Positions 1,523 through 51,559 of a stretch of DNA of 64,000 nt are shown here, piece by piece. The DNA comes from Moniliella sp. 'wahieum' (Eukaryota), in the NCBI GenBank assembly GCA_003971905.1, contig RSEE01000037.1, positions 1-64,000 of the forward strand. Reading direction: 5' to 3'. Made by a program: the position numbers and the translations under genes. The notes beneath the pieces are model-generated. The model saw only the letters and a list, made by a program, of their open reading frames with translations, had not been told where the DNA came from and did no database searches. The stretch's first letter is position 1; every line of letters begins with the position of its first letter.

Positions 1523-1532
1523 AATGGAGGGT
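1523..1532 (+). other. Primer-binding site (self-priming type)
   Basis: AATGGAGGGT lies 1 nt after the LTR and is the exact reverse complement of ACCCTCCATT at 1081-1090 inside the LTR. Confidence 0.7.
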
Positions 1533-1721
1533 CCGGGGTTCCCTCGGCAGGTCCTCAGGGTTCTTCGTTATTGGGCTGGCCCCGCTGACTCCCACGCTGG
1601 TCGTGTCTTTCGCAGTCCACCGCTTTTCTCCCCCCAAGCGTTTCCCCACAGTCTCTTCGTCCCAGGGTGTTTCTACCGCACCTTTCCCTCTCCCCGTTTG
1701 GTCCTCAGGTTTCTGAGACTC

Positions 1722-2807
1722 ATGAGTCAGCCAAGCGAACCGATTTCAGGCCTTTACCAGAGCCAGCACGCGCCGGGCAATCAGCCCGTCCCAGCACCGA
1801 CGTGGACCGCCGGTCCCAGTAGTCGTACCTTCCGCCTGAGCGATTTTCCTCTTTTCGCCCACACGGGCAACAACGTAAACGACCATGCAGCCGCGTGCCT
1901 TTTCCTGGACCGGATCCAGAGTGTGGCCAATCAAGCCGGTGTTCGAGACAACACCACCCTTATTCATCTGGCGTTGCTGCGCATGCCAGACTCAACCTCG
2001 ACGTGGACCCGTCACCAAACCAGCGAGTTTAATCGTATCCATGGCCATGAGGGAGCTGACATTGGCCCTGACGAAGCCGCCCGTTACCACCATCTCTACA
2101 GCTGGTCCGCCTTCCGTACGGTTTTCCTCCGTCGCTTCGGGGATATGCAGGCAGAGGAGCATGCCATGCAGCGACTGTTCGCGCTCAAGCAGGGGAACAT
2201 GACGGTCGGTCAGTACGCGGATAAGTTCCAAGACATTCTCAGCGAGATTGAGGCGTATCGCGGCCAACCCGCAACGGCGATCAGTCTTTTCAAACAAGGC
2301 ATGTCTCCGGAATTACGTCGGGCCTACTTCTACGTCAACGCGTCGATGCATTTTCAAGAGCTGGATGATTTAATCGAGTGGGCTACCCGCACCGAGCTGT
2401 CGAAAGATCTTCTGCCCGGCAGCGACCGTTCCAGCAACTCGCGGTGGAACAACCACAGCTTCCAGTCGCGCTCGCGCAACAGCAACAGCAACAGCAACAG
2501 CAACCATGACTACGAGCCGATGGACTTAGACGGAGCGGAGGTCCGTCCCCAGGGGCGTCGGCCTCGAATCAGCGACGAAGAGTACGCTCGCCGCCGCAAC
2601 AACGACCTCTGCATGCGTTGCGGAGAATCGGGTCATTGGCGTAACGAGTGCCCCTTGGGCCGTAATGGTCAGCGCTCCGGGCGGCGTGGCCGTCGGTTTC
2701 GGCCCCAAGGGAATTCCAATTCGAACGGCTCGAACCAAGGGGGGTCGAGCCAGACGGGCCAAGAGGGCGGCTCGTCGTCGGGCGCGCCGGGGCAGGCGCG
2801 CAACTAG
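1722..2807 (+). CDS. gag: Gag (retrotransposon capsid + CCHC zinc knuckle)
   Basis: SWSAFRTVFLRRFG...LKQGNMTVGQYADKFQ capsid-like segment, EPMDLD motif and CMRCGESGHWRNEC knuckle. The start is taken as the ATG at 1722 (MSQPSE), because ORF 918 begins inside the LTR. Confidence 0.9.
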   Translation: MSQPSEPISGLYQSQHAPGNQPVPAPTWTAGPSSRTFRLSDFPLFAHTGNNVNDHAAACLFLDRIQSVANQAGVRDNTTLIHLALLRMPDSTSTWTRHQTSEFNRIHGHEGADIGPDEAARYHHLYSWSAFRTVFLRRFGDMQAEEHAMQRLFALKQGNMTVGQYADKFQDILSEIEAYRGQPATAISLFKQGMSPELRRAYFYVNASMHFQELDDLIEWATRTELSKDLLPGSDRSSNSRWNNHSFQSRSRNSNSNSNSNHDYEPMDLDGAEVRPQGRRPRISDEEYARRRNNDLCMRCGESGHWRNECPLGRNGQRSGRRGRRFRPQGNSNSNGSNQGGSSQTGQEGGSSSGAPGQARN

Positions 2808-5800
2808 GGGCAAGGGCCCCGCCGTGGATGTGTGCCACGTCCACCTCCTCCGTCAAGATGGTCGCCTAGCGACCGCGCCTACATGTTTCCAGACGGAGTT
2901 GGGCACGCAAACCACGTTAAGCCTAGTGGACACGGGGGCCGAGAGATCGTTTATTGACCGCGCGGAAGTGCGCAAACACGGGTACGTCATGAATCCACTC
3001 TCCGCCCCCTCCAGGTGCGGCTACTGGACGGAAGAAGAAGCTGCTCAGGCCAGGTTACTCACTCTTGCCTTCTGTCTTTCAACCTGGGCGGCCGAACGTT
3101 CAGCCACGAGTTCCTCGTTACGTCGATTCCGCGCTATCCAGCGGTCTTGGGTACCGACTTCCTTTACGCCAACGATGTGTCGCTCTCTTTCGCTCGAGAT
3201 GGTTCAGCCGAGCTTAGCTTCCAGGGCGATGGCCCCTCGATCGAGTGTTGTGGTATCATGGACATACGTTTAGTCTCGGCCTCCCGGTTCAATCACGAGC
3301 TTCAACGAGACGATGATCTCCTAGTCGGCCAAGTGTGGGTTGACGATCAGGGCGAGGTGGTGGCTACGCCCGGAGAGATTCAAGTTGCTCAAGCGGAGAC
3401 CGAGGCGGACGCGGATGACGAGCCGGTGGAGGAGCGCGCCGTCAGTACGATGCCCAACGAGTTGCGTATGGTCGAGGACCCAGGCCCCGGGCAGTTGGAT
3501 GTTGATGACCCAGTGGATGGGGTTTTCCCCGAGCCTCCGAAGCCGCGCCCCCTTGAGGAGATTGCCAAGCTCGTGCCCCCAGAATTCGCGGATTGCCTAG
3601 ATGCCTTTGACGAGAATCGGCTCAATCGTCTACCCCCGTTGCGTCCCGGTTATGACCACGAGATAGAGCTCCTACCGGGTGTCAAGCCTTTCTTCGGCAA
3701 GATCTATCCTCTGTCCACTACGGAATCGGCAGTGCTGGCCGAGTGGATCCGTTCAAACCTGGCCAGAGGGTGGATTAGCCGGTCCACATCCGCGTGGCGC
3801 TCCCCGGTGCTATTCGTTCGCAAGAAGTCGGGAGAGGTCAGAGTCGTGACGGATCTACGTGGCGTGAACGCTAGGTCTGTCAAGAAAAGAGTGCCTCTTC
3901 CCCTCATCGACGAAACGCTCCAGCGCCTGTCGGGGTGGAAGTACTACACCCAGTTGGATCTCAAGAGCGCCTACAACCTGGTCCGAGTTGCCCCCAAGTC
4001 TGTTCCGTATACCGCAGTGGGTACCAAATTCGGTTCTTTCGTTTCCAATGTGATGCCGTTTGGCTTGCAAGGAGCGGGTTCCACCTTCACTACCCTCATC
4101 AACGCGGTGCTATCGGACTTTATCGACACGCACGTCTTCTGCTACCTGGATGATCTCGCGATCGTGCACAATGATCGAGGTGAGCATGTTCGAGTGGTCA
4201 AAGAGGTTCTGAAGCGTCTAGCCGACAACCATCTGGTGGTTGGCATTGACAAGTGCAAGTTCTTCCAAGATTCCATTTCGTTCTTGGGGCATCGGGTGGG
4301 CACACTAGGCTTATCCATGGAGGTCGATCGGGTCAAGGCAGTGTTGGATTGGCCCACGCCCAAGTCGCCGAAGGAGTTGCTCCGCGCTTTAGGGTTTATG
4401 AACTTCTGGAGAATCTACGTGCCGTCCTACTCGCAGTACACCGCGCCCCTGACCCAATTGCTTCACAAGGGTCAGCGTTGGGAATGGACCCCCGAGCACC
4501 AACGTTGTTTCGATCGTCTCAAGGAAGCGTTTACTCAAGCCCCAGTGCTGGCGCCCTTCGACCAGAACAAGCCTTTGAGAATCGAGTCGGACGCGAGTGG
4601 CTATGCCGTGGCAGCGGTCCTCTCTCAGCCTCACGAGGGCCGGCAGCGCCCCATAGCCTATTGGTCAAGGAAGCTTACGCCCGCCGAGCAACGCTGGGGA
4701 GTAGGAGATCAAGAGTTGTTACCCCTAATCACGGCGCTCAAGGTCTTTCGGCATCTGGTGGAGTCGGCCCCGGAGTTGGAGTTGGTGACCGACCACAAGA
4801 ATCTGGTGAGCTACAACGACGAAGGGCAGCGGAACCGCCGGCAAGCGAGCTGGCGCGTGTTTCTTTCGGCCTACCAACCAAGGATGATTTATCGTCCCGG
4901 GTCGAAGAAGATGGTGCTGCGGATGGATTATCTCGTCGTCCAGACCTAGTCGAGCAAGCCAAGAGCGAAGGCGCGGCCGATGCAGCCGAGTGGCGCAAGC
5001 AACCGATCCTGCGAGCCAAGTCAGAGGAGCATGTTGAGGACTATGAGTCGCTCCTGTTGCCGGGAGCCAAGGTGGTGCCGCAAGCCGGGGTTGAAGCGCA
5101 TGCGGGCGAAGTGGAAGCAGTTGAGGAGCAGCCGCCCGAAGGCGAGGTGATTGAAGCCATACGAGAGCTCAAGGAGCACGACAGCGGGTACGAGGCCATC
5201 GTGGAGCGAGTCGAAGAAGGTTGTGCGCCGCAGGAGTATGAGATGCGCAACGGGTTGCTCTACTTCCAAGGGAGAATCTACGTGCCCGAATCCGAAGCAC
5301 TGCGGTATACCTTGCTCCACGACCACCATGACAAGCCCGAGGCTGGCCACCAGGGAAGAGAGCGCACGTACGATCAGTTGGCGCGTTGGTACTATTGGCC
5401 AGGAATGACTTTCGATGTGCGTCGTTATGTGGGAACGTGCTCGTCATGTCAGACTGTCAAGAGCCGCCGCCATCGTCCCTATGGTCTACTGCAACCGTTG
5501 GAAGTGCCAGCCCGACCTTGGTCAAGCTTCAGTATGGATCACTTCGGTCCCCTGCCAGAGGGAGGACTTGGGAGCAAGGGCGAGACGCTGAACATGGTGC
5601 TGGTGGTGGTGGATCGGTTGTCCAAGATGGTGGTGCTCATCCCGTGCAGCTCCGGCGACACGGCGGGTCGTTTGCTTGAGCGGCTGACGGAGAAGGTGTT
5701 CAACGTGTATGGGCTGCCGACCGAGATCGTGAGCGACAGAGGGCCGTTGTTCACTTCGTCCCAGGTGCGTGGCTTTTGCGAGAAGCATGGCATTCGCCAA

Positions 5801-6646
5801 AGCATGGCCACTACCCAGCACCCTCAGTCCGATGGGCAGTCGGAGCGGTTTGTCGATCTGGTTAAGACTCATCTGCGCCATTTCGTTAACCATCTGCAGT
5901 CCGATTGGGTCGAGTACCTTCCCTCAGCCGCCTTCGCGCTCAACACCGCTCGCTCCGCTTCAACAGGGTTGTCTCCGTTCTACATCATGCATGGGTTCCA
6001 GCCGCTCAAACCAGGTGACCCAGTCGCTGCCGTGCGAGAGAATGAGCCAGGGGAGGAACATCAAGAGGCTCGGAACGAGGCGATTGAGACGGCCAAGGGA
6101 GCTTTGGAGCAGGCGCGCAAGAGAGCCAAACACTATGCCGATCGGTTGCGGAGCGAGGCGCCGGAGCTGGAAGCGGGAGATTGGGTGCTGGTTGATCAGG
6201 AGCGGGTGCCGTCAACTCGGCCGAGTGGATCGTTGGAGCGCAGGTACTTGGGGCCATTTAAGATCAAGGCCAAGGTACACGAGGGGGCGTATGTGGTTGA
6301 CCTTCCCCCGTCGATCAAGATCCATCCTGTGCTCAACATCTCTGCCCTCGAGCCGTACCGCTTCGATGCCGTGCCAGCCCGGCACGAGCCCTTACCTCCA
6401 CCGCCCGAAGTTGAGCGAGGCGAAGAACACTGGCTCGTCAAGCGCATCCTCGATTCCCGTTGCTACCGTCGCCAGTTCCAGTACCTGGTCTCCTTCGTCG
6501 GCTTCCCTGAGTCAGAGAACGATTGGGTGCCCGCCAACGACATGGGGGATGAGGCTCCAGTGGTGATCGAGTTCCACACCCAGCACCCCGAGAAATACTG
6601 CTCCCAAGCACGCAAACGGGCCTTGGCCCGCCTTCTCGAGGAGTAG
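2808..6646 (+). CDS. pol: Pol polyprotein: aspartic protease, RT, RNase H, integrase, chromodomain (two apparent 1-nt deletions near 3008 and 4908)
   Basis: Protease LVDTGAERSFI; RT LDLKSAYN, MPFGL, YLDD; RNase H ESDASGYAVAAVL; integrase HDHHDKPEAGHQG...CSSC, SMDH, SDRG, SDGQSER; GPF motif; chromodomain WLVKRILDSR...QYLVSFVGFPESENDW. Confidence 0.93.
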
Positions 6647-29878: not shown

Positions 29879-30358
29879 GGTGGATGGGTGGGTGGGGAGG
29901 AGCGGGCGAGGTGGCGAAGCAGCGCGTCCTTTTAACGCCCGCCAGAAGGCTGGTCCGGGCGGCGGGCGCACGGAACACCCCGCCGGGGGGGCGCACGGGG
30001 GCAGTGTCGGACTAGGGCGGACATAAGCGGGTGGACGTCATTTCATTGTCATCTATCATCGCCATCATGCGTCAGCGCGCTCATGCACCGGAGACGGGGG
30101 CTAGGGTTGGGGCACACTGGCGCTGGGCGGGGATGGTGACATGGGTGCGCCATCGCGCCGGGGCTGCACGGGCCAGCGCGCAGCGCAGAGTGCCAGCGTG
30201 GCCGGGCGGCGGCGGGTGCGCTGCTGAGGTCAGCGGCGGAAGGATGGGCGGGAAGCACGTGGCAGGTGAAAGTTGCAAGGCGGGTGCGGGGACGCTGGGC
30301 CAGGCCGCTGCCCAGCACCGCCGCCGGCAAAACCCAACCAGCCGCCGCCGCCGCCGCG

Positions 30359-33300
30359 ATGGAGATGCTGCCCACCGCGCCCCAGCCGCAGCACCTCCGC
30401 CAGCAGGCCCAGGCCCAGGCCCAGGCACAGGCACAGGCACAGGCCCAGGCACACGCCCACGCCACGCCCAGCAGCAGCGCCTCGCCCCCTCCACGCCATG
30501 AACGGCAGCATGTCCCCCGCCGCCGCCCCCCCCCCGCCCCACCTCGCCATGCGCCCCATCAGCCAGCCCGGCCCGTCCCCCGCCGCCGCCAGCCCCCCGC
30601 CCAGCCTGAATGCGCCCCCCATGGCCACCATGCCCGCCGCCGCGCCCGCCGTGTCGCGCGCGTCCTTCTCGCTCGCGCCCGACGCCGCCCGCCCCGTCAC
30701 GCCGCAGCTGCTCGGCCCCGCCAGCGCCCACTCGCTCCACTCCAGCCCGGCCCACACCACCCCGCCACGCCCCTCGTCCGCTCCTCCCCGCACCTCCAGG
30801 GCCCCGCCGGCCAGGCCACCCAGCACGCCCAGCTCCAGCACCGCCTCCAGGCGCACAGCAGGAACAGCAGTTCTTCCCCTCCCACCTGCACGACCCTGCC
30901 TCTGCCTCTGCCTCTGGCCTTGGCCCTGCCTCTGGCCCGGCTCGGCCCCCGCCGCCCCGCCACCACGGCGGGCAGCCCCTTGGTCGCTGGCTCTCCCATG
31001 CCCGGCGCCACGCCCCAGATGCACGCTTCGTATTTGCCCCAGCGCACCCTCTCCCTGTCGGGCCCCTCGGGCCCCCTGGCCAGTGCCCCAGCACCCCTTT
31101 GCCCAGCCCGCCGGCACGGTCGCGTCGGCCCAGGCCATGCAGGCACGGCAAAACCAGGCGCAGGCGCAGGCTCAGGCCCAGGCCGCTCAAGCACAGTCGC
31201 AAGCTCAGGCTCAAGCTCAGGCTCAAGCTCAGGCTCAAGCTCAAGCGCAGGCTCAAGCGCAAGCGCAGGCGCAGGCTCAAGCCCAAGCTCAAGCCCATGC
31301 GCAAGCCCAAGCCCAAGCCCAGGCTCAAGCTCAGATGCAAGCCCAATCACCGCATCCACCACAGCCGCAACCCCAGGCCCGTGCCCGTGCACAGCATGAG
31401 CAGGCGCAAGCGCAAGTGCACGCGCAGAGCCAAGAACGAAAAGCTTCCCTCTCAAGCCAGGCGGCCCAGGCCAACGGCCCTTCCGTCTCCATCCATCCAC
31501 CCGGCAGCCTCGCTGCCGAGGTGGAGCGTGCGCGGAACGACAATGTGGCAGCGCAGCAATATGCCACCGCGGTCGGGGTCCGCGCGGCGCAGACTGCGTT
31601 GCACGATGGCGCAGCGCTCTTCCTCCTGGTGCGGCCCTGTTGCGGCTGCTGCAGTTCTTTGAGGCGGTGGGGACTGGGCCGCCCGAAGGGAGCAGTGCGC
31701 AGGACGAGCATGAGTTCTGGACCGAGCTGGTGGACGAGTTTTTCTTGCCAGACGGGCTGTTGCGCTTGATTTTGTGGGACTCGATCAATGCGGACCAAAA
31801 GCCATTTGAGATGCCCCATCCGCTCCTCTCGCGTTGGTTCCAGACCATCTCCTCTTCTCTGGCCGGGGTCAAGTCGGTGTCGCACACGCTCGAGACGCCA
31901 CGCGAGTATGCGCGCGACTCGGTTTCGGAGCCGGCATCGGTAGGCACTTGGTACCCCCCGCCGCCGGCGGCGCCGCAGACCAAATACTACACTTCCATCC
32001 CTTCGAACCCAAGCTACGCACATGGTCGAGTCGGCGCGTACCATTCTCAGCCAGACCTACCACAATGGGTGGCGCGTCCAGACCCATGGCATCCTACGCG
32101 CTACCTTTGCACCCTCGACGCGGCTCGTGGTGCGCTCGACGCCCAAGACGGGGTACCCCCTCGGGCCGCGCTTGGAGGCCCACACGGCACTCCGGCTGGA
32201 ATCGTTGGACTTTGTAGCATTGTCCCACGAAGCGTGTGTGTCGCCATCGCTGTTGCACAAGCAAAGTGTCACTCGACCAGTGCCCCAGCTACCATCGATG
32301 CGATTGTCCGGATGGTCAAGGGCGCCGAACCTTCCCCGCCCACCGTGCTCGCCTCGGCCATCGCACCCATCCCGTACGAGACGACCTTGGTGCCCGAATG
32401 TCCGGTGAACGAATTTGGACTGACGCTCCTGTCGATGCGCTGTCTCGAGGTACGTCCGGCTCTCTCTCTCTCTGGCTTGGTCCGAACCACACGACTGTAA
32501 CTGACCCGTGGCGAATGGTAGTTGTCAGAATCGCTGTACAAGCTCAGGGACATTATGGACTACAGCTTGCGAGAGCGAATTGGACCGGTGGAAGCCATGC
32601 ACCGCTTCCACGACCGCTTGTGGCATGGCAAGGATCCTTCTGCTCCTACTCCTACTCCTGCTCCTGCCCCTGCCCCTGCTCCCGCTCCTGCTGCTGCTGC
32701 CGCCTCTGCTGCCGCTCCTGCTCCTGCTCCTGCTCCTGATGCTGACGCTGGTCCTGGAGCTACTCCTGCTGCTGCTGCTGCTCCTACTCCTGTTCCCGCT
32801 CCTACGCCTGCACCCGCGGCTGCACCTGCTTCTGAACCTGCTTCTGCCCTGCCCCTGGCCTGCTTCTGCACCTGTACCTGCACCTGCACCTGCACCTGCA
32901 CCTAGCGCTGCCACTGGCGCTGACACTGGTGCCGGTGTTGGCGCTAGCGCTGGTGGTGACACTGGTGGTGACTCTGGGGCTGGGACCAGTACCAGTGCTG
33001 ATGCTGGGACCGGTGCTGGAGCTGGTACCCGTGCCGACGTTAGTGCTGACGCTAATGCTGCCGGTGGTGATGCGGGAGCTGATACGGGAGCTGATACCGG
33101 TGCTAATGCTGACGCAAGTGCTGGTACTGGCACTGGTACTGGCACTGGCACTGGTCGGGCGCTGGCGGTGCGCCTGCCCGTGCACCTACACCTACACCTA
33201 CTTCGGTCCCTGGGGGTAATGGTGGCACTGGGTCGAGTCCAGCGTCTCTCTCCGATCCCAAGGAGCCCAAGGAAGATTCTGGGCGGAGCAAACGGAAAGC

Positions 33301-34010: not shown

Positions 34011-37000
34011 TTAGTGGGTGGTGTCGGGGACAAAGCTGCGCCAGCTGCGGACCTCGGGAGGGATGTGTCCCTCGACATAGCCCTGCAGTCCGTCCTGGTT
34101 CATCTTCTTGGCCAGAGCATCGACAAACAGTTCTGCTGTGCGCGCCTCGTTGAGCAGGGGCAAGCCAAAGTCGACAGCGTTGCGACGGGCGACGTAATCT
34201 TCATCGACCGTGTCCTTGCCGCGGGCGGCGGCGAGGTTGATGACGAACTGGATCTCGTACTCGTCAAACACTTCGCGCAACTTACGCTTGTCCTTGAGGG
34301 GAAAAAGATGCGCTGGACAGTGACGTGCGGCAGGCCGTTGAGGAACTCCTCCACCTCCGCATTGGAGCAGTACAGCTTGAAGCCCAACTGGGCCAACTTG
34401 CGCGCCGAAGCGGCCAGCTGAGGTTTGCTAATGTCCCCGCCCAACAGGACGCCCTTGTTGGGCTCGGGCACACGGAAGCCCGTGGTGCTGGCGATCGAAG
34501 CCCAGTAGGCCTCGGCCACATCCACCCCGAACGACGCCACTTCGCCCGTGCTGGCCATCTCGACCCCGAGGTAAGGGTCGGCGCCGGCGAGACGGGTCCA
34601 GCTGAATTGAGGCACCTTGATCGCAACATAGTCGCGCTGCTGCTCCATCAGGTCCACCGGTTCCGGCACATCTTCCCTACGATCGCCGCGGTGGCAATGT
34701 CGATAAAGTTGACGCCGAGCACTTTGCTGACAAAGGGGAAGGAGCGACTGGCACGCAAGTTGCACTCGAACCTTGAGTGCCGCCTCGCCTTCGCCGTCGG
34801 TCGGAGGCTTGCGGATGATCTGCATGTTGAACGGCCCGCTGATCTTGAAGGCCTGGGCCACCTTTTGGGCAATCACCTTGATCCGCTGCACATCGTTCTT
34901 TTCCAACGAAAACGGCGGTAGGACCAGTGTCGCATCGCCCGAGTGCACCCCGGCTTCTTCCACGTGCTCCGACACGGCATGGACCAGCAACTTGCCCTGG
35001 TACGCCACCGCGTCCACATCGATTTCCTGAGCATTGTTGATGAACTTGGTGAGTACGACGGGGTGGTCCTTGTTGACCTCGGCAGCGGCGGTGAGGTTGT
35101 GCTCCAGAGTGCTCTCGTCCCAAATCACATTCATCGCTGCGCCCGACAAGACGTAGGAAGGACGAACGAGGACCGGGTAGCCGACCCGCTCGGCAAACTC
35201 CTTGGCCTTGCCCACGCTCGACACTTCCACCCATTCGGGCTGGTCGACACCGACTTGGTCCAGGATCTGACTAAACTTGTGCCGGTCCTCAGCGCTGTCG
35301 ATCATGACGGGGTCTGTGCCGAGCACATTGACCTCGTTCTGCTTGAGGCGCAGCGCAATGTTTTGCGGTAACTGCCCGCCGACCGAAAACCACCACCCCA
35401 GACGCCTTTTCCAACTCGTAAATGTCCATCACGCGCTCAAAGCCCAGCTCCTCAAAGTACAGCCGGTCCGCCTCGTCAAAGTCGGTCGAGACGGTTTCGG
35501 GATGTAGTTGATCATGATGGTCTTGTGGTGCATACTCCGGATCTTGCGCGCACACGTCACGGCGCACCAGTCAAATTCGACACTGCTTCCGATCCGGTAC
35601 ACGCCGCTGCCAAGGACCATGGTGCCCTGGTCGTCAAACTCCACGTCGTGGCTGGTGGCATTGTAGGAGGTGTAGAGGTAGTTGGTGAACGCCGGGTACT
35701 CGGCTGCGACCGTATCGATGCGCTTGACAAAGGGGGTGACACCGAGTGCTTTGCGGTGCTTGCGCACCGCATCCTCGCTCGACTTGGTCGCAGCGGCAAT
35801 TTGGCGATCACTAAATCACGCTGCTTGGCCAGCAAAATGGTCTCGCGGTCGACCGCAGCAATGTCGCCAATGGTCTGGAGCGTGCGCTGGATATCGACAA
35901 TGTTTTGCAACTTGTACAGGAACCAACGGTCAATCTTGGTGAGCGAGGCAGCTTCTCCACATCGTAGCCGCGGTTGAGCATCGCGTGCGCAATGGCAAAG
36001 AGACGCGTGTCGGTGGGCACGCTCAGTGCATGGTCCAACGCCTCGTCCGTAGGCGGCTGCACGTACGCGGCAAACCCATCGTACGCCGGCGCAATTTGTC
36101 GAATCGCCTTTTGCAACGACTCTTCAAACGTCCGTCCTACTGCCATCACCTCGCCACCGACTTCATCGACGACCCACCTCGCGGTTCACGTACTGGAACT
36201 TGGACAGATCCCACTTGGGAATCTTGGTCACAATGTAATCCAGCGCCGGTTCAAAGCAGGCTGTGGTCGTCTTGGTCACCGCATTGGGCAGCTCGGGGAG
36301 CGTATGGCCCAGAGCGAGCTTGGCGGCCGTGTAGGCGAGCGGGTAGCCCGTCGCTTTGCTCGCCAAGGCACTGGAGCGGGACAGACGCGGGTTGACCTCA
36401 ATCACGCGGTAGTCGCGTCCATCGGGGCTGAGCGCGTACTGGATGTTGCACTCGCCCACAATGCCAAGGTGGCGGATGACCTTGAGCGCGGCCGTGCGCA
36501 GCATGTGGTAGTTGTCGTCCGACAAGGTTTGGCTCGGCGCAACGACGATCGAATCGCCAGTGTGAATGCCAAGCGGGTCAAAGTTCTCCATGTTGCAGCA
36601 AATGATCGCATTGTCCTCTTGGTCCCGCAGCACTTCGTACTCCGACTCCTTCCATCCTTTCAGCGACTTTTCCACCAAAATCTGCGGCGACAGCGACAGC
36701 GAACGCGCACTCAGGTCGCGCAGCGAGTCCTCGTCCTCGGCAAACCCAGACCCCAGGCCGCCCAGGGCGTACGCCGCACGCACAATCACCGGGTACCCAA
36801 TGTTCTCCGCTGCCTTGAGCGCGGCAGGCACCGACGACACTGCCTCTGACTTGGCGACGGGGATGTTGATTTCTGCCAGGAAGCCAACAGAGCGTCAGTG
36901 CAACTGCGCGGGAAAGGGAACGGGAGGGGAGGCAAAAAAAAGAGGGAAGGCGGACATACGGTCAAGGGCTTGCACGAACAGGCGGTCCTCGCACATCTTC

Positions 37001-42950: not shown

Positions 42951-43455
42951 CCAGGGGGGGGGGGGGGGGGGGGGGGGGAGGGCAAGGCGCTCAGTCCACA
43001 CGGGCGAGGGAGCAGGACAGGAGAAGAGGGTGGCGGGTGGCAGCGAGAAGGGAAGGAACGAGAAGGGTGGGGATCGTAGCAGCTGAAGATAGTAGTAGAT
43101 TTCCGACGTGGTGTCAGTCGTCGGTGTTTTTACCCAAAAGCCAGTCCCACCAGCCCTGCCCCACGCCGGCCTTGTCGGGGGTAAGATCTAAGAGACAGGT
43201 CAGCAAAGTATCGATGGCGGCGTGGCTGGCTCGAGTCACTAGTCAGACTGAGCACTGTCTAGTTTATCCAGGTGGTACTTGCACGGTGCCCATCCAGTGG
43301 TACTCGCTGCTGTCGGTGCCACTCTTTTCCCGGCCACTTGTTTCTACTTGGGCGGCTTGAAGATACTCCCCCCAAACGTGGTTCCGCCGGCAACTCCGGT
43401 CACACTTGGTCACACGCTCACCTCCACGTGATCCGCGGATATACTCGGCCGAGGC

Positions 43456-43829
43456 TGTTTGGCCTAGGGAGCCGGACGGGCAGAAGGATGAGGAGAAGGT
43501 GATGGATTGGAGCCAGAGTTGGGTCTGGGTACAGAGGCATCTATATAGGAGGCTGGACTAGGCACAGGGACAGTGAGTCACACAGGAGAGAGTGCAGGGC
43601 ACAGGGACAGTGACACGCAGGGACGTCAGCGTGGAAGCCGATGGAACCGAGGCGAACCTGGTCTACCGACTGGGAGCCAGAGGATCACAGTCAACACCCC
43701 GCTGGCCAGGAACCCGGAGACATCGGTTGTGGGATGAGCTCCTGCCAGTGGATGTAGAGAGGGGAGGACTTGAGTGGCAACCGGGACGAATGGCCTGGAG
43801 TTGTGCATGGCCACCACGACTGGCCTACA
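43456..43829 (-). repeat. 3' LTR of the copia element (374 bp)
   Basis: Direct repeat of 49502-49874; I see only single-base indels. It is preceded on the minus strand by PPT GGACAGCGGGGG (43830-43841). Confidence 0.95.
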
Positions 43830-44415
43830 CCCCCGCTGTCCAGGATGACACCTGAACGAGCCGAGCGCTTGTGGTTGGTGTATTGTGCGACCGCCAGATG
43901 CTTGTAGAAGTCTTAGAAGTAAAAGTAGTAGGGGTTGCGCCCCGAAGCGATTTGGTGGGCAAAAGTAAAAAGCACCAGTTATAGGTGTAGTGAAAGAAAA
44001 TTGGAAACTTGGAGTAAATGCGGTCAAGGTCGTTTGGCATCAAAATTGGATGCGTTTGGTAGTTGTTTGGTTCCGCATGCCTGGTGCCAGTGGGGTCCAT
44101 TGGGCATGGGAAATGAACGGGCGCTATGCGTCAACCGTCTTGATCTGTTTGGGTTCTCTTTGGTTGTTGAAAAAGAGGAGTGGAAGAAGTTGGGTGACCA
44201 CCCCCCCCATCCTTTCCCCAGGTGCCCCGGATGAATTGGCAATCCGGGGCGTGTAGCCGTGGGTGGGGCACTTGATGAGCAGCCACCCCCTTTCTGCGAT
44301 TCGCCTGCGCCGTTTTGTCGTTGGAGGAATTTCGTCTCGTTGACGATACCCGACACGTTTTGTTCCGTCGTGTGTTGTCCCTAAAAATCATTGCCCCATC
44401 TGTGGGGGACGAGTG

Positions 44416-44491
44416 TGCCGATTGTGGCGGTAGTATGCCGATTGTGGCGGTAGTATGCCGATTGTGGCGGTAAGGTGCCGATTGTGGCGGT
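44416..44491. repeat. 20-bp tandem repeat (TGCCGATTGTGGCGGTAGTA) x~4 in the copia 3' internal region
   Basis: Units start at 44416, 44436, 44456 and 44476. Confidence 0.92.
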
Positions 44492-44734
44492 GGTGTTGTT
44501 GGGCGGGAGACGGGTGTGTCTTGTGGGCTTGGCGGCTTAGCTTGGGCTTGTAGGCTTGGGGGTGGGCTTGCTTGAAGAGCGCTCCCCTTCCGGGGGATCA
44601 GATTGTAGCTCTGTTGGCCTCGCTACTACCACAGAATGTGAGCACTGAACGTCGTATTGGACTAAGAAGCTTCTGCGACTGACTCGTCCAGAAACTGGTG
44701 CGAGCTCGGAAGAATGAAAGCTGACTCACGTGAC

Positions 44735-47700
44735 TCAGGGTCCCGCGCGGGTCCTAGGACGGATGTCAACACCCCCGCTGACCGGAGGCCCAGTCATGTG
44801 GACTGGATCCATCTCCTCGACGCGGAGTTGAGCAAATGGCTTGTCAGGGCGGGACGGCCGAGAGGCTTGGTGAGGACGTCCGCTGGGTTCCTTTCGCCGG
44901 GGATGTGTACAATGGCCTCGCCCGAGTCCACGTGTTGCCGTACATTGTGGTACCGGATCTTCAGCTCTCGGAGCTTGCCGGTGCTGCCAAATTTGTGGGC
45001 GAGATCGCGACAGACTTATTGTCGCATACCAATGAATGGGTGTACCCCTCGCGATGGCCCCAAGCTCGATCATGATGTTCTTGACATAGTTGGCGTCAAC
45101 CAGTCCATCATATCCTGCCGTATATTCGGCGGCTGCGGTACTGGTAACGCTCTTCGGCTGAAGAATGGATCGCCACGACACCGGCACACCGTACACCATC
45201 AGTTACATCCAGATGTGGAGCGTGCCTGGATGGGATCTCCCGCCAAGTCGGAATCTGTATACAGCGCAATGGCCGGTGCATCTGATGTTGGGGTCAACCT
45301 CAGGCCCTTTCCTCGAGTATGGTACAGGTAGCGAAGGAAGTCATCGACTGCTTGATGATGCTGCTGCGATGGGTCGGCAGCGGCTCTGCTGAGGGCCGTG
45401 ATAGCGAAGAGGGAGTCAGGCCGGCCCATTCGTGCAGCCCACAGTCCCGATCCGATCTTCCCCTGATATGCCTTGCGCAAGGCTGGGAGGGATGGGGGTT
45501 CAGGGTCGGCACGGGGCGGTATCATCCGTACGGGATGTGGGAGAGTCCGGATCCACGGGGCTTTGATGTGGTGCTTTGCCACCACTTCCTCGATGAACTT
45601 TGGTTGGCTCAGGTACAGCTCCCCACCGATCCGATCGTATTGGCATCCCAGGTGGTAGTGAAGGGGACCGTTACCACGAACATCAATGTGTGTGTTTATC
45701 TCGGCCATAAACTCCTCGTACTTTTGGTGTGACTTGCATGCGAGGAGCAGATCGTCGGTGTGGACCGCCAGGAGGATCTGCTCACCCGGTGGTGCAGCGC
45801 GCACGAACAAGCAGGGCTCGGTCAAGCTTTGCGTGAAGCCGAGCTTGTCACGCAGCAGGTTCCGGATGTATCGTGCCCAGTTTGCTCCGCTCTGATGTAG
45901 CCCGTATAGACTCTTCTTGAGACGCCACACGCGACCACCCGCTTCGGGGAAGTAGGGGGGTGGGCGGATGTAGACTGCTTCTTCGAGGGGGGCGTTCAGG
46001 TACGCTGCATTGACGTCCGCCGAGAAGAGGCCAAACTTATACTTCTCGGCCAGCACGACGAGGGTCAGGATGGCAGGTGTGCGCACCGATGGTGCGAACG
46101 TCTGGCCCCAAGTCTCGGCCGATTGTTGGTGTCCGCCCGCGACAAAGCGCGCGCGGTGGCGCAGGAACCGGCCCTCGGCGTCCGTCTTTGTGGTGATGCG
46201 CCATAGTCCTATGAGGATTTGTGCACCCGGTGGTGGGTACGTAGCCTCGTAGGTGCCGTATCGCGCGAGTGTGGCCACCTCGTCGGCCATAGCCTGCTTG
46301 ACCATGGCAAAGGAGGGGTGAGTCTCGAGACCCTTGAGCGTCTTGGGAGCGAGGGGTACGCCATCCTTGGTGAGCTGAACCGTGTCCGGGTGGATGGGTG
46401 CGCTGAGAGCAGTCATGGCGGCGTATTCGGGAGGTTGAACTGTGTCGGCAAACGGGGGGGCGGATGTGTCAGGTAGGGGGCGGGCGATGCCGATCTCTGG
46501 TGCGGCGCAGTGGGGCGTGGCGGCTGCAGCACGAGCATGGTAGGTCGTGTCGGTGGGGTCGTCAGCGATTGGGAGTGTGTGCAGGTCGAGGGAGGTGCGG
46601 GTGGTGCGCTGGCGGAGGGGGTAGCGGCGCGGAGGGGGGGTGGTGGTGGGAGCGGGTGTCTGGGGTGTGGCGGCGGTTCGGGGCATGGGTGCTGCCGCGG
46701 CTGGCGGAGTAGGGTTAGCGTCTTTTTCACTGTCGATTTTAATTTGAGGTGATTTGGAGATGTCGGGTGGGAAGTGGTCGGGGTGGAGATGGGGGTAGAT
46801 GGCGTTGCCCCATTTGTACGGTTTCGACCAGCGGTAGGTGAAGGTACCCAGGGATGGTTGGTATGTGGCGAAGAGCCATCCCTTTGATCCGCGCTGATGG
46901 TGGTATCCTACCAGCATACCTTCCTCTGCCCGCGCGCTGAGCTTGTGCTCGCGGCGTGACTCGGGCAGATGGAGGTATGCAACGCGGCCAAAGGGTTGCA
47001 TCGGTAACGAGTATGCGTGGCCTTTGTATCGCTCAAATCGCGATTTGTTGTCTTCCCCGGATGTTTTGAGTGGCATTTGGTTTTGGGTGAAGCACGCAGC
47101 GTGGAGGCTGTGTTCCCACCAGTCCGACGTCGGAAGACCTGTACCCAAGAGCAACTGCCTTGCACGAGTCGTTATGGTTCGGATGGCACGCTCAGCCACA
47201 CCGTTGCTAGCACTCTGCCCCGGGATTGTCCGTTCTGACGTGATGCCTTGCTCGTCCAGAAAAGGTTGCAGTGCGCTTGTCAATTCGGGGGCGTTGTCCG
47301 TGCGCAAAGTCCGCAGCAGTCTGTCCGGGCCGTAGCGTTGCTCCCGCAATATGAGGTTCCGCAGTTCCTTCGTTGCAGCGCCCTTTGTCGGGATCGCTGT
47401 GGTGAAGACGTACCGCGTGAAGTCATCAACGGCGACGAGGGCGTATCCGTGCCCCATGCCGGTTACCCGGGGGAGGTCTACTACGTCGACGTGGAGGACC
47501 TCGAAAGGTCTTTTGGATCGGAGGCGGTCCCGGCTCGGATGGGGCGATGCTGTCGCTAGTGCCACCGCGCATGTTGGGCAATCCCACTCTGAACGACAGA
47601 GGGAGATATGCTTGGCTGTGACGCGGAGGCCTGCGGTTTCCGATCGTGTAAGCCAGGGGAGGAGGTCGATGGCTGCGTGGTTCCAGCGTTTGTGGGCTTT

Positions 47701-48201
47701 AGAGACGTGGTCCAGGGCCAGGGATGCTGCGAGGGAGTTTGGGGTTGAGGGTGGGTCGGCCGGTTTGATCGGTTTGGTCGCCATGGCCCGCAGGGGTGTG
47801 GGTGGCGTTCGCGGGTTGTGTAAGATCGTGAATTGATAGTCACTGCCGGTTACTTTTCGTAGGGTGGATCCTGGGTTACCAAGCCAGATACCCTTCTGGT
47901 GTGGGGCGAAGTATGATGCGATTCCGGTGTTCGACAGGTGTGCTACACTGACGAGATTTCGGCTGAAACGGGGCATGTATAGGCTGTTGGGGAGTTTTAT
48001 CTCCATTTGGTGTCCTCCTAAGCATCGGATACGGATTGTGGCCGTGCCTCGTCCTTCCGCCTTTACATGTGTCCCGTTAGCAACCTCTATCTCGTCGTCG
48101 CAAGGGGTCATGGATGTGAAGACGGATTTGTCTTTCCAAATGGATGGGAATGCCCCACTGTCATATAATGCCCGGATGATTCGCATTTCGCCCCCGAGTT
48201 C
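44735..48201 (-). CDS. pol: Copia Pol: protease, integrase, RT, RNase H (frameshifts in the RNase H part)
   Basis: YDSGA; HKRWNH...CPTC; HVD...VDDFTRY...RTDNAPE...NGVAERAIRT; DVNAAYLNAPLEE, LKKSLYGLHQSG, HTDD; YTDSDLAGD, RSTSG, VSWRS...AAEY and NPADVLTK. Confidence 0.93.
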
Positions 48202-49447
48202 CTAGTAGTCAGCTGTGCCCGCATCAACGTCAATCACTTCAGACTCGGGAGAGCTCGCTCTCTGAGCGACGTGAGCGTTGGCTCGGCCTGGGTTGCGCGG
48301 AGGGACAACAGGTTTATTAGACGTCGCGCTGCGCCAGGGTTGGTTGGTGCGGTCTTGCCCCTTGGTCTTTGTGTCCGCGAGGTTGTCGTCGCCGGCTTTG
48401 CCCCCGCTGGAGTTTTTTCCCCCGCTGGTGGGTCGTCCCCCGCTGTCGGGTCGAGTCCAAGGCGTTCCTCCGTTGACCGGCTTGCCTCCGTTTCTCTTCC
48501 TTTCTCCACCGGGATACGTGGCGGCTGGTATGTCCATCACGGCCTGCCGTAACTTGTCTAGACTCGAGCGCTCTTCACGCTGGCGAATGCTCATGTCGCG
48601 TAAGCCGAGTAGGATCCCAGTGCGTTCCTGCTCTTCCGTAAGTGGGATGCCCGCTCGCGTCAGGCTTGCACTGATCTCTTCCATGTAGTCGAGGTAGTCT
48701 CGACCCGATCGGTTTCCTTGGTCGGCCGAAAAGTAGCGAATGAGTAGAGGCCCTCTGTTTGCGGTAGGCGTATATCCATACCGCTGACGCAGCATGTTCA
48801 GCGTGTCCTGGGTGCATGATATTTCGTGGTGGGTGCGGATCGTCCGGAAGAGGGTTGACGGCATGGCTTCCCTAAGAAGGTTGTGCAAGCGTCTGTCGAG
48901 GTCCTCGGTGAAGTAGCGGGAGCTGCGACCATTCTGGACGACGTCGCTTGCGTGGGGGGGCATCTGTTATCGCGAAGAGAAATTCGTCTTCCCAAGCGCT
49001 GTAGGCGGACGGGTCTTTGTTCAGATCAGGCCACTTGATATTCTTGGTGGGAGACTCGCGTAGTGATCTGTAAAGGTCGTACTCGGGTCGCGAGGCTGCG
49101 CCTGTAGGTGCCCCCAAAGTTGCGTTGGGTTGAGTTTCCATTTGGTGGATGTTTTGCACCACAAAATTCGTAGCCCGTCGAACCCAGTTTGTCGTGATAG
49201 ACGTAGGTTCGTCCTTCCATCCAAGCCACTCGGCTCTGTCGTGTATAGCTCTGTTGATCTTCTCTTTAACGACATCGATGTCGTTCGTCTTCTTGAACCA
49301 CAGGTGCGCTTCGGCGCAAAGCATCATGAGTTCCTCGTTGTCGGTGCCAATCGGTGGCGGATCGCGACCGGTTGGTGTCCAGTAATCGCGCTTGTTCACC
49401 ATTGTGGTGTCGCTGACCGAGAGATCGGTGTTAGCGTTGGCGCCCAT
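48202..49447 (-). CDS. gag: Copia Gag (one homopolymer frameshift near 48960)
   Basis: First ATG after the PBS (MGANANTDL). YSAWEDEF...LNMLRQRYG...DYLDYMEEISASLTRAGIPLTEE...ILLGL resembles copia gag. Ends in TAG in frame with pol. Confidence 0.8.
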
Positions 49448-49501
49448 GGTTGTGGGTGTAGTTTTGGCCAGCTCAGGGATGAGCAGATAAGGATGTAACT
49501 C

Positions 49502-49874
49502 TGTTGGCCTAGGGACCGGACGGGCAGAAGGATGAGGAGAAGGTGATGGATTGGAGCCAGAGTTGGGTCTGGGTACAGAGGCATCTATATAGGAGGCTGG
49601 ACTAGGCACAGGGACAGTGAGTCACACAGGAGAGAGTGCAGGGCACAGGGACAGTGACACGCAGGGACGTCAGCGTGGAAGCCGATGGAACCGAGGCGAA
49701 CCTGGTCTACCGACTGGGAGCCAGAGGATCACAGTCAACACCCCCGCTGGCCAGGGAACCCGGAGACATCGGTTGTGGGATGAGCTCCTGCCAGTGGATG
49801 TAGAGAGGGGAGGACTTGAGTGGCAACCGGGACGAATGGCCTGGAGTTGTGCATGGCCACACGACTGGCCTACA
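49502..49874 (-). repeat. 5' LTR of the copia element (373 bp)
   Basis: TGTAGGCC...GGCCAACA on the minus strand; contains CTATATAG (TATA-like) and TGAGTCA. Confidence 0.95.
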
Positions 49875-51072
49875 GAGGCTTGGCCTGTTCGTTCGCACGG
49901 CGTTGCCCGAGACGCTCGACAGGGCCTGCCCGCTCAACCAGGCTAATCTGCTCGGAGAACTGAGCCTCAGATCGAACCCAGGCCCCACCATCGCACTGGG
50001 CGCCCCAGCAGAGGAAAAACCCACAGTGAGAAAATCGCAGTGGGGACGGCACAGCACACAAAGATCACATGCGGCACACCGAGTCATACATACAGTTGGG
50101 AGCAAACAACGGCGCCGTAGCGCCGTAGCCGGCTTGAATTCAAGCTTCAAGTTGAAGCTTCACATGCAACAAGCGCGTAAGCCCGCTATAGCAAGTGGCG
50201 CCGTCCCTCGTCACACGACCCTTGTTTGGTCGCTGATCGATCCTGTTGCCTACCAGCAAGACCTAAAGGCCTAACTCCGACCCATTCCGCGTCATGTCCA
50301 TGACACATTTGCCACACGCTTGCCCGTCCACCCATGCGGACGGGGCGGACTTGCTTTTTTGGAACTTTAATCCTCTCAGTCAGTCGCCTCAAACGATGCA
50401 ATGATGGTGCGGTAGGGTTAATCTTAGGATACACACGACATGGGACTGCCGCTATATAGTCCACCACGTCCACATGGCACTCTGCAGTCTCTCTCTCGTC
50501 TCGAAGCTCGATCTCTTGTTGTTCCGCCATCGCCGCTGGTGCCTGCGGGGCAGATCATTGGTGGACCAGACGGTGTGGGGGAAGGGGAAGACGATGAACA
50601 AAAAGAGTATAGACGTGCAGTCTGTATCCGCATCTACCAGTGCACACGTTTTCATCATTGTTCATGGGCAATCGTCGACACCATGGACTGAAGAGAAGAC
50701 TGACCAACATCGCGCGGACCATCTACTCATCGGCGGTCAGTCAACCGTCTCGACGCAACAACTCAAGCCTTTGCAAGACGTCAAAGTGGGGTAAACCGGA
50801 ATGGCCAGCCATGAAAGGAGTGCAAACGGCGGCAAAAAAAGAGCATAAGTACACACACCCTCAGAGAAGTGGATCCGAACGACCACAAGTGATACTATAC
50901 ACGTTTTGTGGAAGATGGCTTCAAGCTTCAAACCTGGGTAAAGAATCAGTGCCCTCGTTTGCCTCGTATCCCACTCCTTGGTTGTCTCGTTGGGTCCTGG
51001 GCTGTATGCCACAGTGCGTCTTCCCCCTTCTGCATCACTCCCAGTCGGTTGCCATGGGCACCTCAAAAGAAT

Positions 51073-51132
51073 GTGTGACGAGTACTGCGCTCGTGTGACG
51101 AATACTGCGCTCGTGTGACGAGTACTGCGCTC
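51073..51132. repeat. 20-bp tandem repeat (GTGTGACGAGTACTGCGCTC) x3
   Basis: Three head-to-tail units with one mismatch and no spacers. Confidence 0.9.
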
Positions 51133-51559
51133 CTAGATACTCGACACCTACTATAATAGAAGAATACAATCCAACAAGACCCAACAGCGTCTCCCCGAGG
51201 ATAAAGTCCACTCCACACAACCTCAATGGCGCAACAATGAACCAAAACATGGGAGAGAATATGTATGTAGTACGATCAGATATGGTATGAGATTCCATGC
51301 AGTGTACCCGAAGAGAGTGCGGGTACAAGAACGGTAAGTTGTATGTTGCCAGCACGAACTGCCACAAGTGTCAAATGGGGCGAGGGAACGTTCGGGGCAA
51401 AAGAGAGTGATGAGGAAAAAGAGCCAAGAGAAACCAGAAACGAGAAATGAGAAACGAGAAAGAGAAAGAGAAAAGAAAGAGAAAAGAGAAAAGAGAAAAG
51501 AGAAAGAGAAAAGCGAACAAAACAAAAAGACACAGAGAGTACTGTATCCAGACGGTTGC

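Follow-up and report, generated by a model that had tools for sequence, protein, structure and literature searches.

Sabot and Schulman 2007 (PMC1950507) described three-LTR complexes, in which a middle long terminal repeat (LTR) is common to two internal regions, for Angela, Squiq and Opie, among copia and other elements. In their model, the minus-strand DNA at the 5' end of a packaged RNA jumps to the 3' R region of a different RNA, which yields identical outer LTRs, a chimeric LTR in the middle and an ordinary target-site duplication (TSD). Here we describe a Ty1/copia element of comparable layout, located in a 64,000-nt stretch of DNA from Moniliella sp. 'wahieum' (GenBank assembly GCA_003971905.1, contig RSEE01000037.1, positions 1 to 64,000), which is referred to throughout as the window. 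Between its gag-pol region and its 3' LTR, the element carries an LTR-like segment (L') followed by a non-coding stretch (the cargo), and we lean towards reading it as an autonomous copia element fused with a short non-coding relative. The Angela, Squiq and Opie complexes resemble it in having three LTRs, of which the middle one is common to two internal regions, a single 5-bp TSD, near-identical outer LTRs and a copia-type element. They differ in that both of their cores are complete and their three LTRs clearly alike, whereas in the element studied here, which is fungal-type, the second unit is 0.76 kb long and non-coding, and the middle LTR measures 160 bp and has an unrelated U3.

Arrays of several units have been described as well. 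Morales-Diaz et al. 2025 (PMC11899658) report many tandem insertions of LTR retrotransposons in plants, each with a single TSD, and name one-LTR circles, transcribed past a weak terminator, as a possible source; TRIM/Cassandra arrays are a comparable case. The plant tandems share with our element the alternation of LTRs and internal regions, the one TSD and the judgement that they are single insertions, but they repeat the same unit, with 85–99% identity of LTRs and internal regions (two loci), whereas the two units described here are unlike each other. PMC4378997 mentions transposed Ty1 multimers of budding yeast; by that account they are likewise a fungal copia-type element transposing as multi-unit arrays, some of them heterogeneous, yet they come from mutant strains and consist of full Ty1 units. 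A preliminary description of our locus, made from the sequence alone, had not recognised the arrangement from described fungal copia elements; the three precedents just named speak against that view. The three-LTR arrangement is known from copia and gypsy elements of plants and from yeast, and the locus is not a new kind of element. What the comparison suggests to be distinct are the unlike partners, the decayed middle LTR, a shift of the LTR border and the fungal-type copia background.

Dasheng and RIRE2 form a pair of autonomous and non-autonomous partners. Other such partners or chimeras, BARE1/BARE2 and Veju-L, are cited by Sabot and Schulman (PMC1950507). Pairs of the BARE1/BARE2 type are similar to the case presented here in that a non-coding element possesses the primer-binding site (PBS), polypurine tract (PPT) and LTR ends of its partner and recombines with it during reverse transcription, but the resulting chimeras usually have two LTRs, while here the partner would still be bounded by its own relic LTR. 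Ty1 and lentiviruses contain an extra (central) PPT copy upstream of the 3' PPT, inside pol, with the LTR unchanged. In our element, by contrast, the extra copies are found where pol ends and within the LTR, one at each place, and unlike with the central PPTs, a switch between the copies would alter the length of the LTR.

Anatomy of the element

The locus is one young Ty1/copia insertion, which spans positions 43456-49874 and is read on the minus strand; coordinates refer to the window, and the study is based on this single copy (Table 1). Its outer LTRs have TGTAGG..CAACA ends and stand as direct repeats flanked by a 5-bp TSD, which together with the TG..CA termini is the form expected of copia elements. 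When aligned, the 5' and 3' LTRs differ by five one-base indels and by no substitution, and the 3' LTR terminates in AGGCCAAACA, with an extra A relative to the 5' LTR. Since the TSD flanks the entire composite and the outer LTRs are near-identical, the whole was inserted as one unit, as the preliminary description had proposed. A flanking TSD and high similarity of the outer LTRs also characterize the published three-LTR complexes. The proposed layout would be: outer LTR, PBS, gag-pol, PPT(a), L', PBS', a 0.76-kb interior, PPT(b) and outer LTR. BLAST detected no second copy of the LTR, L', cargo or internal region within the window.

Table 1. Parts of the copia element and its target-site duplication, listed in the direction of reading
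Feature	Positions	Strand	Description
TSD, 5' side	49875-49879	minus	GCCTC, read directly; same 5 nt at 43451-43455
5' LTR	49502-49874	minus	373 bp, TGTAGGCC...AGGCCAACA
PPT(c)	49734-49749	minus	CAGCGGGGG then TGTTGAC; inside 5' LTR
PBS	49486-49501	minus	GAGTTACATCCTTATC; directly after 5' LTR; label by position
gag-pol region	44794-49446	minus	from domain order and frame tracing
PPT(a)	44772-44780	minus	CAGCGGGGG; 13 nt past pol stop, directly before L'
L'	44612-44771	minus	putative relic middle LTR, 160 bp, TGTTGACA...AGGCCAACA
PBS'-like stretch	44596-44611	minus	GAGCTACAATCTGATC; directly after L'
Cargo	43839-44595	minus	757 bp, non-coding, C/A-rich; between PBS' and PPT(b)
PPT(b)	43830-43838	minus	CAGCGGGGG; directly before 3' LTR
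3' LTR	43456-43829	minus	374 bp
TSD, 3' side	43451-43455	minus	GCCTC, read directly

Within the 5' LTR we found a TATA box, TATATAG, at 49591-49585 and a TGACTCA site at 49624-49618, both on the minus strand. The U3 of both LTRs includes an imperfect tandem repeat of 18 bp in 3.5 copies (72% matches; 43563-43624 and 49607-49668), which adjoins the TGACTCA site and lies upstream of the TATA box. A 7-nt complement, AACTCTG/CAGAGTT, noticed by eye about 27 nt past the TATA box, raised the option of Tf1-like self-priming; it was rejected, as with such a pairing U5 would end two bases short of the LTR end that is observed.

The middle LTR-like segment

L' occupies the place that the 3' LTR has in a plain copia element, 13 nt past the pol stop and behind a copy of the PPT, and, as in the three-LTR complexes, it lies between two internal regions. 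It begins with TGTTGAC, ends in the same 9 nt as the LTRs, and its termini form a 5-bp inverted repeat, TGTTG/CAACA. The PPT core that precedes it is the one that precedes the true 3' LTR, where PPT(b) is, to judge from its place, the plus-strand priming site defining the present LTR. The 12-mer CAGCGGGGGTGT, which is CAGCGGGGG with the next three bases, has three exact matches in the window; with one mismatch allowed there are five, against 0.86 expected, and 0 of 100 shuffles reach that number. At the other edge of L', the 17-mer spanning the LTR end and PBS, AGGCCAACAGAGYTACA, occurs at exactly two sites, 49510-49494 and 44620-44604 (0.00 expected by chance; 0 of 100 shuffles reach two), and the end of L' is identical with the real LTR-end/PBS junction at 16 of 17 nt. 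The edges of L' are LTR-start and LTR-end/PBS junctions far beyond chance, and the three-LTR-like architecture suggested in the preliminary description holds, along with its identification of the two PPT cores and of the shared LTR terminus.

Two of the likenesses claimed there need to be qualified. The second PBS had been called nearly identical to the first, which is true of the junction, but over its full extent the likeness amounts to 12 of 16 positions (GAGTTACATCCTTATC vs GAGCTACAATCTGATC; 0 of 1000 shuffles reach the score) and ends after those 16 nt. The interior of L' had been described as unlike the flanking LTRs. This stands for the 5' (U3) part, where similarity to the LTR past TGTTGAC is at chance level (1047-1271 of 2000 shuffles reach the score), but the last ~60 nt are weakly similar to R-U5: with the shared last 9 nt excluded, they agree with the R-U5 end of the LTR in 31 of 55 aligned columns (~56%). 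For tails of 40, 50, 60, 70 and 80 nt, the score was reached by 142, 17, 23, 1 and 11 of 2000 shuffles, respectively, and a global alignment of the whole of L' with the LTR is mildly above shuffles (22/500). These comparisons weakly point to L' and the corresponding part of the outer LTR being related but distinct LTR variants. The interior further contains TGAGTCA-CG-TGAGTCA at 44737-44722, a pair of AP-1/Gcn4-type sites overlapping CACGTG, as first noted in the preliminary description. No TATA box is present in the sequence of L', whereas the real LTR has TATATAG.

The TG..CA ends of L', its 5-bp inverted repeat and an interior unlike the LTR of the host element would also suit the chance insertion of a different family's solo LTR into the 3' untranslated region of the copia element. 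Such a solo LTR would have a 5-bp TSD of its own, but the sequences flanking L' are GGGGG and GAGCT. Its neighbours are instead the PPT motif of the element and a PBS-like 16-mer, which are not expected around a random insertion. Because of the absent TSD and of these neighbours, we exclude a nested solo LTR, an explanation that we consider scarcely conceivable.

Composition of the outer LTRs

The 16-mer CAGCGGGGGTGTTGAC, with which PPT(a) and L' open (44780-44765), recurs at 16 of 16 positions inside the 5' LTR, at 49749-49734, i.e., at positions 126-141 of the outer LTR. The copy in the 3' LTR (43704-43690) has one G fewer. This recurrence had escaped the preliminary description. BLAST likewise reports a 19-nt match with one mismatch between LTR positions 123-141 and 44783-44765. 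The outer LTR can be divided accordingly into a segment X (positions 1-134), which ends in CAGCGGGGG, and a segment L of 239 bp (positions 135-373), which runs from TGTTGAC to AGGCCAACA and whose ends form the same 5-bp inverted repeat, TGTTG/CAACA, as those of L'. As the PPT/TGTTGAC junction is nested in each outer LTR, we take the outer LTR to have grown by 134 bp from an older LTR of 239 bp. The sequences upstream of the PPT copies, three in number, are alike only at or near chance level (20-907 of 1000 shuffles reach the score), and for this reason we make no claim that X derives from the 3' end of pol. The start of the present LTR, TGTAGGCC, agrees in 7 of 8 positions with TGTTGGCC, the LTR end in inverted form, and can, given this match, still serve as an integrase end. 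In a limited literature search we found no description of LTR lengthening by an extra PPT; priority is not claimed.

Metagenomic fragments and the coding region

One food-metagenome study matched the element (word share 0.12; region compared 43300-50000) in three runs, denoted here X1, X2 and X3. The last two contribute one 33-nt match each. The X1 contigs have a depth of ~2.4-2.8, and their parts unlike the window are visible as 30 letters only. A contig covering 44677-45132 reaches from pol through PPT(a) into L', of which it includes the first 95 nt, with 4 mismatches and 13 one-base gaps over 456 nt, so the pol/PPT(a)/L' junction exists outside the present assembly. The cargo is covered at 44302-44570 with 6 mismatches. 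Another X1 contig tracks the cargo and PBS' to 44615, beyond which it has 159 nt that do not resemble L', a stretch that ends in an ..AGGCC..AACA-type LTR end in the 30 letters visible; the cargo would so occur behind a different LTR-like sequence in this run. A contig with X, PPT(c) and TGTTGAC diverges exactly past TGTTGAC (49734) for 71 nt. As the likeness breaks exactly at these two junctions, we suggest that LTR variants have been swapped at these borders, also in relatives.

The coding region was assigned to Ty1/copia because rve precedes RVT_2 in one frame. This frame, of 995 aa (45199-48186), is the longest and holds Pol_BBD (8-88), rve (225-324), SH3_retrovirus (396-438) and RVT_2 (651-875; Pfam E 6.6e-37), and the pol stop TGA lies at 44796-44794 on the minus strand. 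The RNase H end is readable only via three frame changes, and two further ones are located in gag and at the gag/pol border. With five frame changes in total, the continuous gag-pol frame that would mark an autonomous copy is lacking. The three changes in RNase H coincide with one-base indels relative to the metagenome contig and may be assembly errors. Taken together with the LTR differences, which consist of indels only, the coincidence of the X1 gaps with the points where the RNase H frame is broken (44677-45205) suggests that the assembly contains indel noise, or else that the copy decayed by indels alone.

With noise of this kind in view, one may ask whether a long-read assembler joined, inside the repeat, reads from two members of the family, or reads from an element with those from a solo LTR. 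Both the outer LTR pair, which differs by one-base indels only, and the preponderance of gaps over substitutions in the X1 contig are in keeping with an error-prone assembly, and a false join is formally possible at the L'/cargo and cargo/LTR junctions. Yet indel noise cannot build an ordered 0.94-kb module with PPT, LTR ends and PBS. Moreover, an independent contig spans pol, PPT(a) and L', the cargo is also found in X1, and outer LTRs and TSD together enclose a single, coherent insertion. We thus regard an assembly artefact as very improbable.

In a large protein collection the closest proteins are 62% and 45% identical to the studied pol, followed by Ustilago copia proteins at 25-31%, and no near-identical protein was found there; the copia family would thus appear to be rare in public data. 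The nearest relative in that collection, P0001, with 62% identity, is encoded by X1 record 3 (a 5089-nt contig) and represents a second, more abundant copia element with a depth of ~30. A scan with the pol protein gave 1 pattern match in viral_contigs and 16 in metagenome_contigs, none of which was confirmed as a relative. The junction pattern GGYCAGCGGGGGTGTTGAC returned 29 stretches from metagenome_contigs, 0 of 29 being related to the element by blastn/tblastn. In viral_contigs, the PBS-junction pattern matched 3 chance stretches, none related, and the cargo-repeat pattern had no match.

The cargo segment

In agreement with the preliminary description, the DNA between PBS' and PPT(b) is unique, with no second copy in the window, contains a 20-bp repeat in four copies (44412-44491) and is followed by the PPT and LTR. 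None of 10 open reading frames (ORFs) on both strands, 7 of them within or overlapping the cargo, encodes a Pfam family. Rfam gave no match at E<=1 in the cargo, the three rows obtained elsewhere, in the LTRs, being at chance level, and no tRNA, 5S or ribozyme-like part was detected in the cargo. In translated comparison, likeness to gag-pol or to the remaining 57 kb of the window was limited to low-complexity matches. The cargo is flanked by PBS' and PPT(b), but by unlike LTR variants, namely L' and the outer LTR. It can be read as the interior of another unit, a non-autonomous one, and it may represent an old retroelement interior or captured host DNA.

The same region can be viewed without a second element. 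The ancestral LTR would have been long, of ~1.3 kb (44771-43456), and would have started after PPT(a); PPT copies would have arisen within its U3, and priming at the inner PPT(b) would have given the LTR of 373 bp, with the remaining old U3 left as 'internal' DNA. The location of PPT(a), 13 nt past the pol stop, is indeed the canonical place of an LTR border, PPT(c) shows that PPT copies do occur within LTR sequence of this lineage, and the cargo is U3-like, being non-coding with tandem repeats as in the real U3. This account, however, leaves unexplained why an LTR end with a PBS-like junction (16/17 and 12/16) should lie 160 bp into the supposed U3, and why R-U5 is resembled by the 60 nt that precede this junction, so that an earlier fusion would still be required. 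The occurrence of PBS' and cargo behind a different LTR-like end in run X1 also speaks against it. We therefore find a long ancestral LTR rather unlikely.

Origin of the composite

We judge it moderately probable that the element is a heterologous three-LTR 'complex', an autonomous copia joined to a short non-coding relative via a shared middle LTR. Of the options raised in the preliminary description, this corresponds to the fused non-autonomous satellite, which is favoured by the evidence from the junctions, the tail of L' and its flanks. Under this reading, RNA of the autonomous copia and RNA of a related short non-autonomous element would have been joined through their common LTR. One conceivable route is template switching, in which minus-strand DNA, having arrived at the 5' end of the first of two co-packaged RNAs, jumped to the 3' R of the second; alternatively, a genomic tandem or a one-LTR circle would have been transcribed through its middle LTR. 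Either way, the fusion product would possess identical outer LTRs and would have been inserted as one unit with one TSD. L' would derive from another variant of the LTR within the same group of elements, which would explain why the PPT, the TGTTG.. start, the ..AGGCCAACA end and the 16-nt PBS are kept, why R-U5 is weakly alike and why U3 is unrelated. A TATA-less L' would also fit a middle LTR that needs read-through. In a second event, plus-strand priming, which had set the start of the older 239-bp LTR (TGTTGAC..CAACA) after PPT(c), may have moved to the upstream PPT(b), whereby the 134 bp between the PPTs would have joined the U3 of both LTRs. The mode of joining and the order of the two events are what we infer from the present structure, in which L' is probably now mostly a passenger.

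Another possibility is that the module still works, with L' acting as a Gcn4/AP-1- and CACGTG-responsive internal promoter and/or with PPT(a) and PBS' as extra priming sites, comparable to the central PPT of Ty1 or lentiviruses. It would then yield a sub-genomic RNA equal to a small non-autonomous retroelement, which is compatible with an origin by fusion. At its edges L' is (almost) perfectly conserved, in contrast to its diverged interior, a pattern that suggests constraint. The two TGAGTCA sites over CACGTG have a counterpart in the one TGACTCA upstream of the TATA box of the real LTR, and Sabot and Schulman (PMC1950507) considered that every unit in a complex could be driven by the LTR upstream of it. 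L', however, has no TATA box, PBS' differs from PBS at 4 of 16 positions, and with R-U5 only ~56% alike, first-strand transfer would be poor for an RNA started in L'. The conservation of the edges is, moreover, equally expected if L' came from a sister family using the same enzymes. For these reasons a working module seems to us fairly unlikely. A bolder version, which we hold to be distinctly unlikely, would make the element a 'mother ship': L' would be a live, TATA-less promoter driven by stress factors, from which a self-contained mini-retroelement of the form R'-U5'-PBS'-cargo-PPT-U3-R is launched out of its autonomous helper, and the PPTs a, b and c, as alternative plus-strand start sites, would let successive generations switch between LTR lengths of ~239, 373 and 1,316 bp. 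LTR borders would, within this version, be a heritable yet reversible choice.

Several observations weigh against the fusion of two elements that we favour. Searches of the window and of the contig collections revealed neither a stand-alone element with paired L' LTRs nor a copia copy without the module, so that neither partner is demonstrated, and the single copy studied lies in a window that holds no second copy of any part. The second unit resembles the first only in the 16-nt PBS and the 9-nt PPT; with its 757 bp and no protein family, it is far from the two complete cores of the published complexes. The resemblance of L' to L in R-U5, for which five tail lengths were tried, is weak, and a jump mediated by R at ~56% identity is not obviously easy. 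The putative PBS does not start with TGG and is named by its position alone; copia elements have a PBS complementary to a tRNA, often initiator tRNA-Met or part of it, and no tRNA gene is found within the window. As for run X1, its contigs are fragmentary and leave most of the element uncovered, including 43300-44195, with none over 44616-44676 or over the cargo/PPT(b)/LTR junction, and the sample may be of the same species, in which case it says little on how widespread the arrangement is.

Other features of the window

A Ty3/gypsy chromovirus-type element is located at 1524-6646 on the plus strand and encodes Retrotrans_gag, RVT_1, RT_RNaseH, Integrase_H2C2, rve, SH3_Tf2-1 and Chromo domains in overlapping or split frames (3258-4949 and 4484-6646). 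Just outside the copia element, past its 5' side, we observed at 51072-51131 and 51422-51523 a 20-bp repeat of family D2, with two 40-nt copies that overlap, and a run of purine-rich, GAAA/GAGA-type sequence. An ORF on the minus strand (34100-35305) encodes an ATP-grasp/CPSase_L_D2 domain (carbamoyl-phosphate synthase L-chain ATP-binding; E 2.6e-17) and is probably an exon of a host gene of the carboxylase type. The GC content of the window is mostly 0.55-0.65, which, with the Ustilago proteins among the pol relatives, is in keeping with a GC-rich fungal host, and it peaks at 0.71 in 30001-32000, where four overlapping ORFs of 350-423 aa occur on both strands, as is typical of very GC-rich or low-complexity DNA.

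Significance

Relic LTR, PBS and PPT signals inside elements, such as those described here, can mislead automatic LTR annotation and LTR-based dating. If the reading that we favour is true, the locus preserves two steps that are usually erased, the fusion of an autonomous with a related non-coding element via a shared LTR and the migration of an LTR border by a changed plus-strand priming site. It would predict LTR length variants and stand-alone mini-elements, and it would extend three-LTR complexes, so far known mainly from plants and yeast mutants, to a natural copia element of the fungal type.

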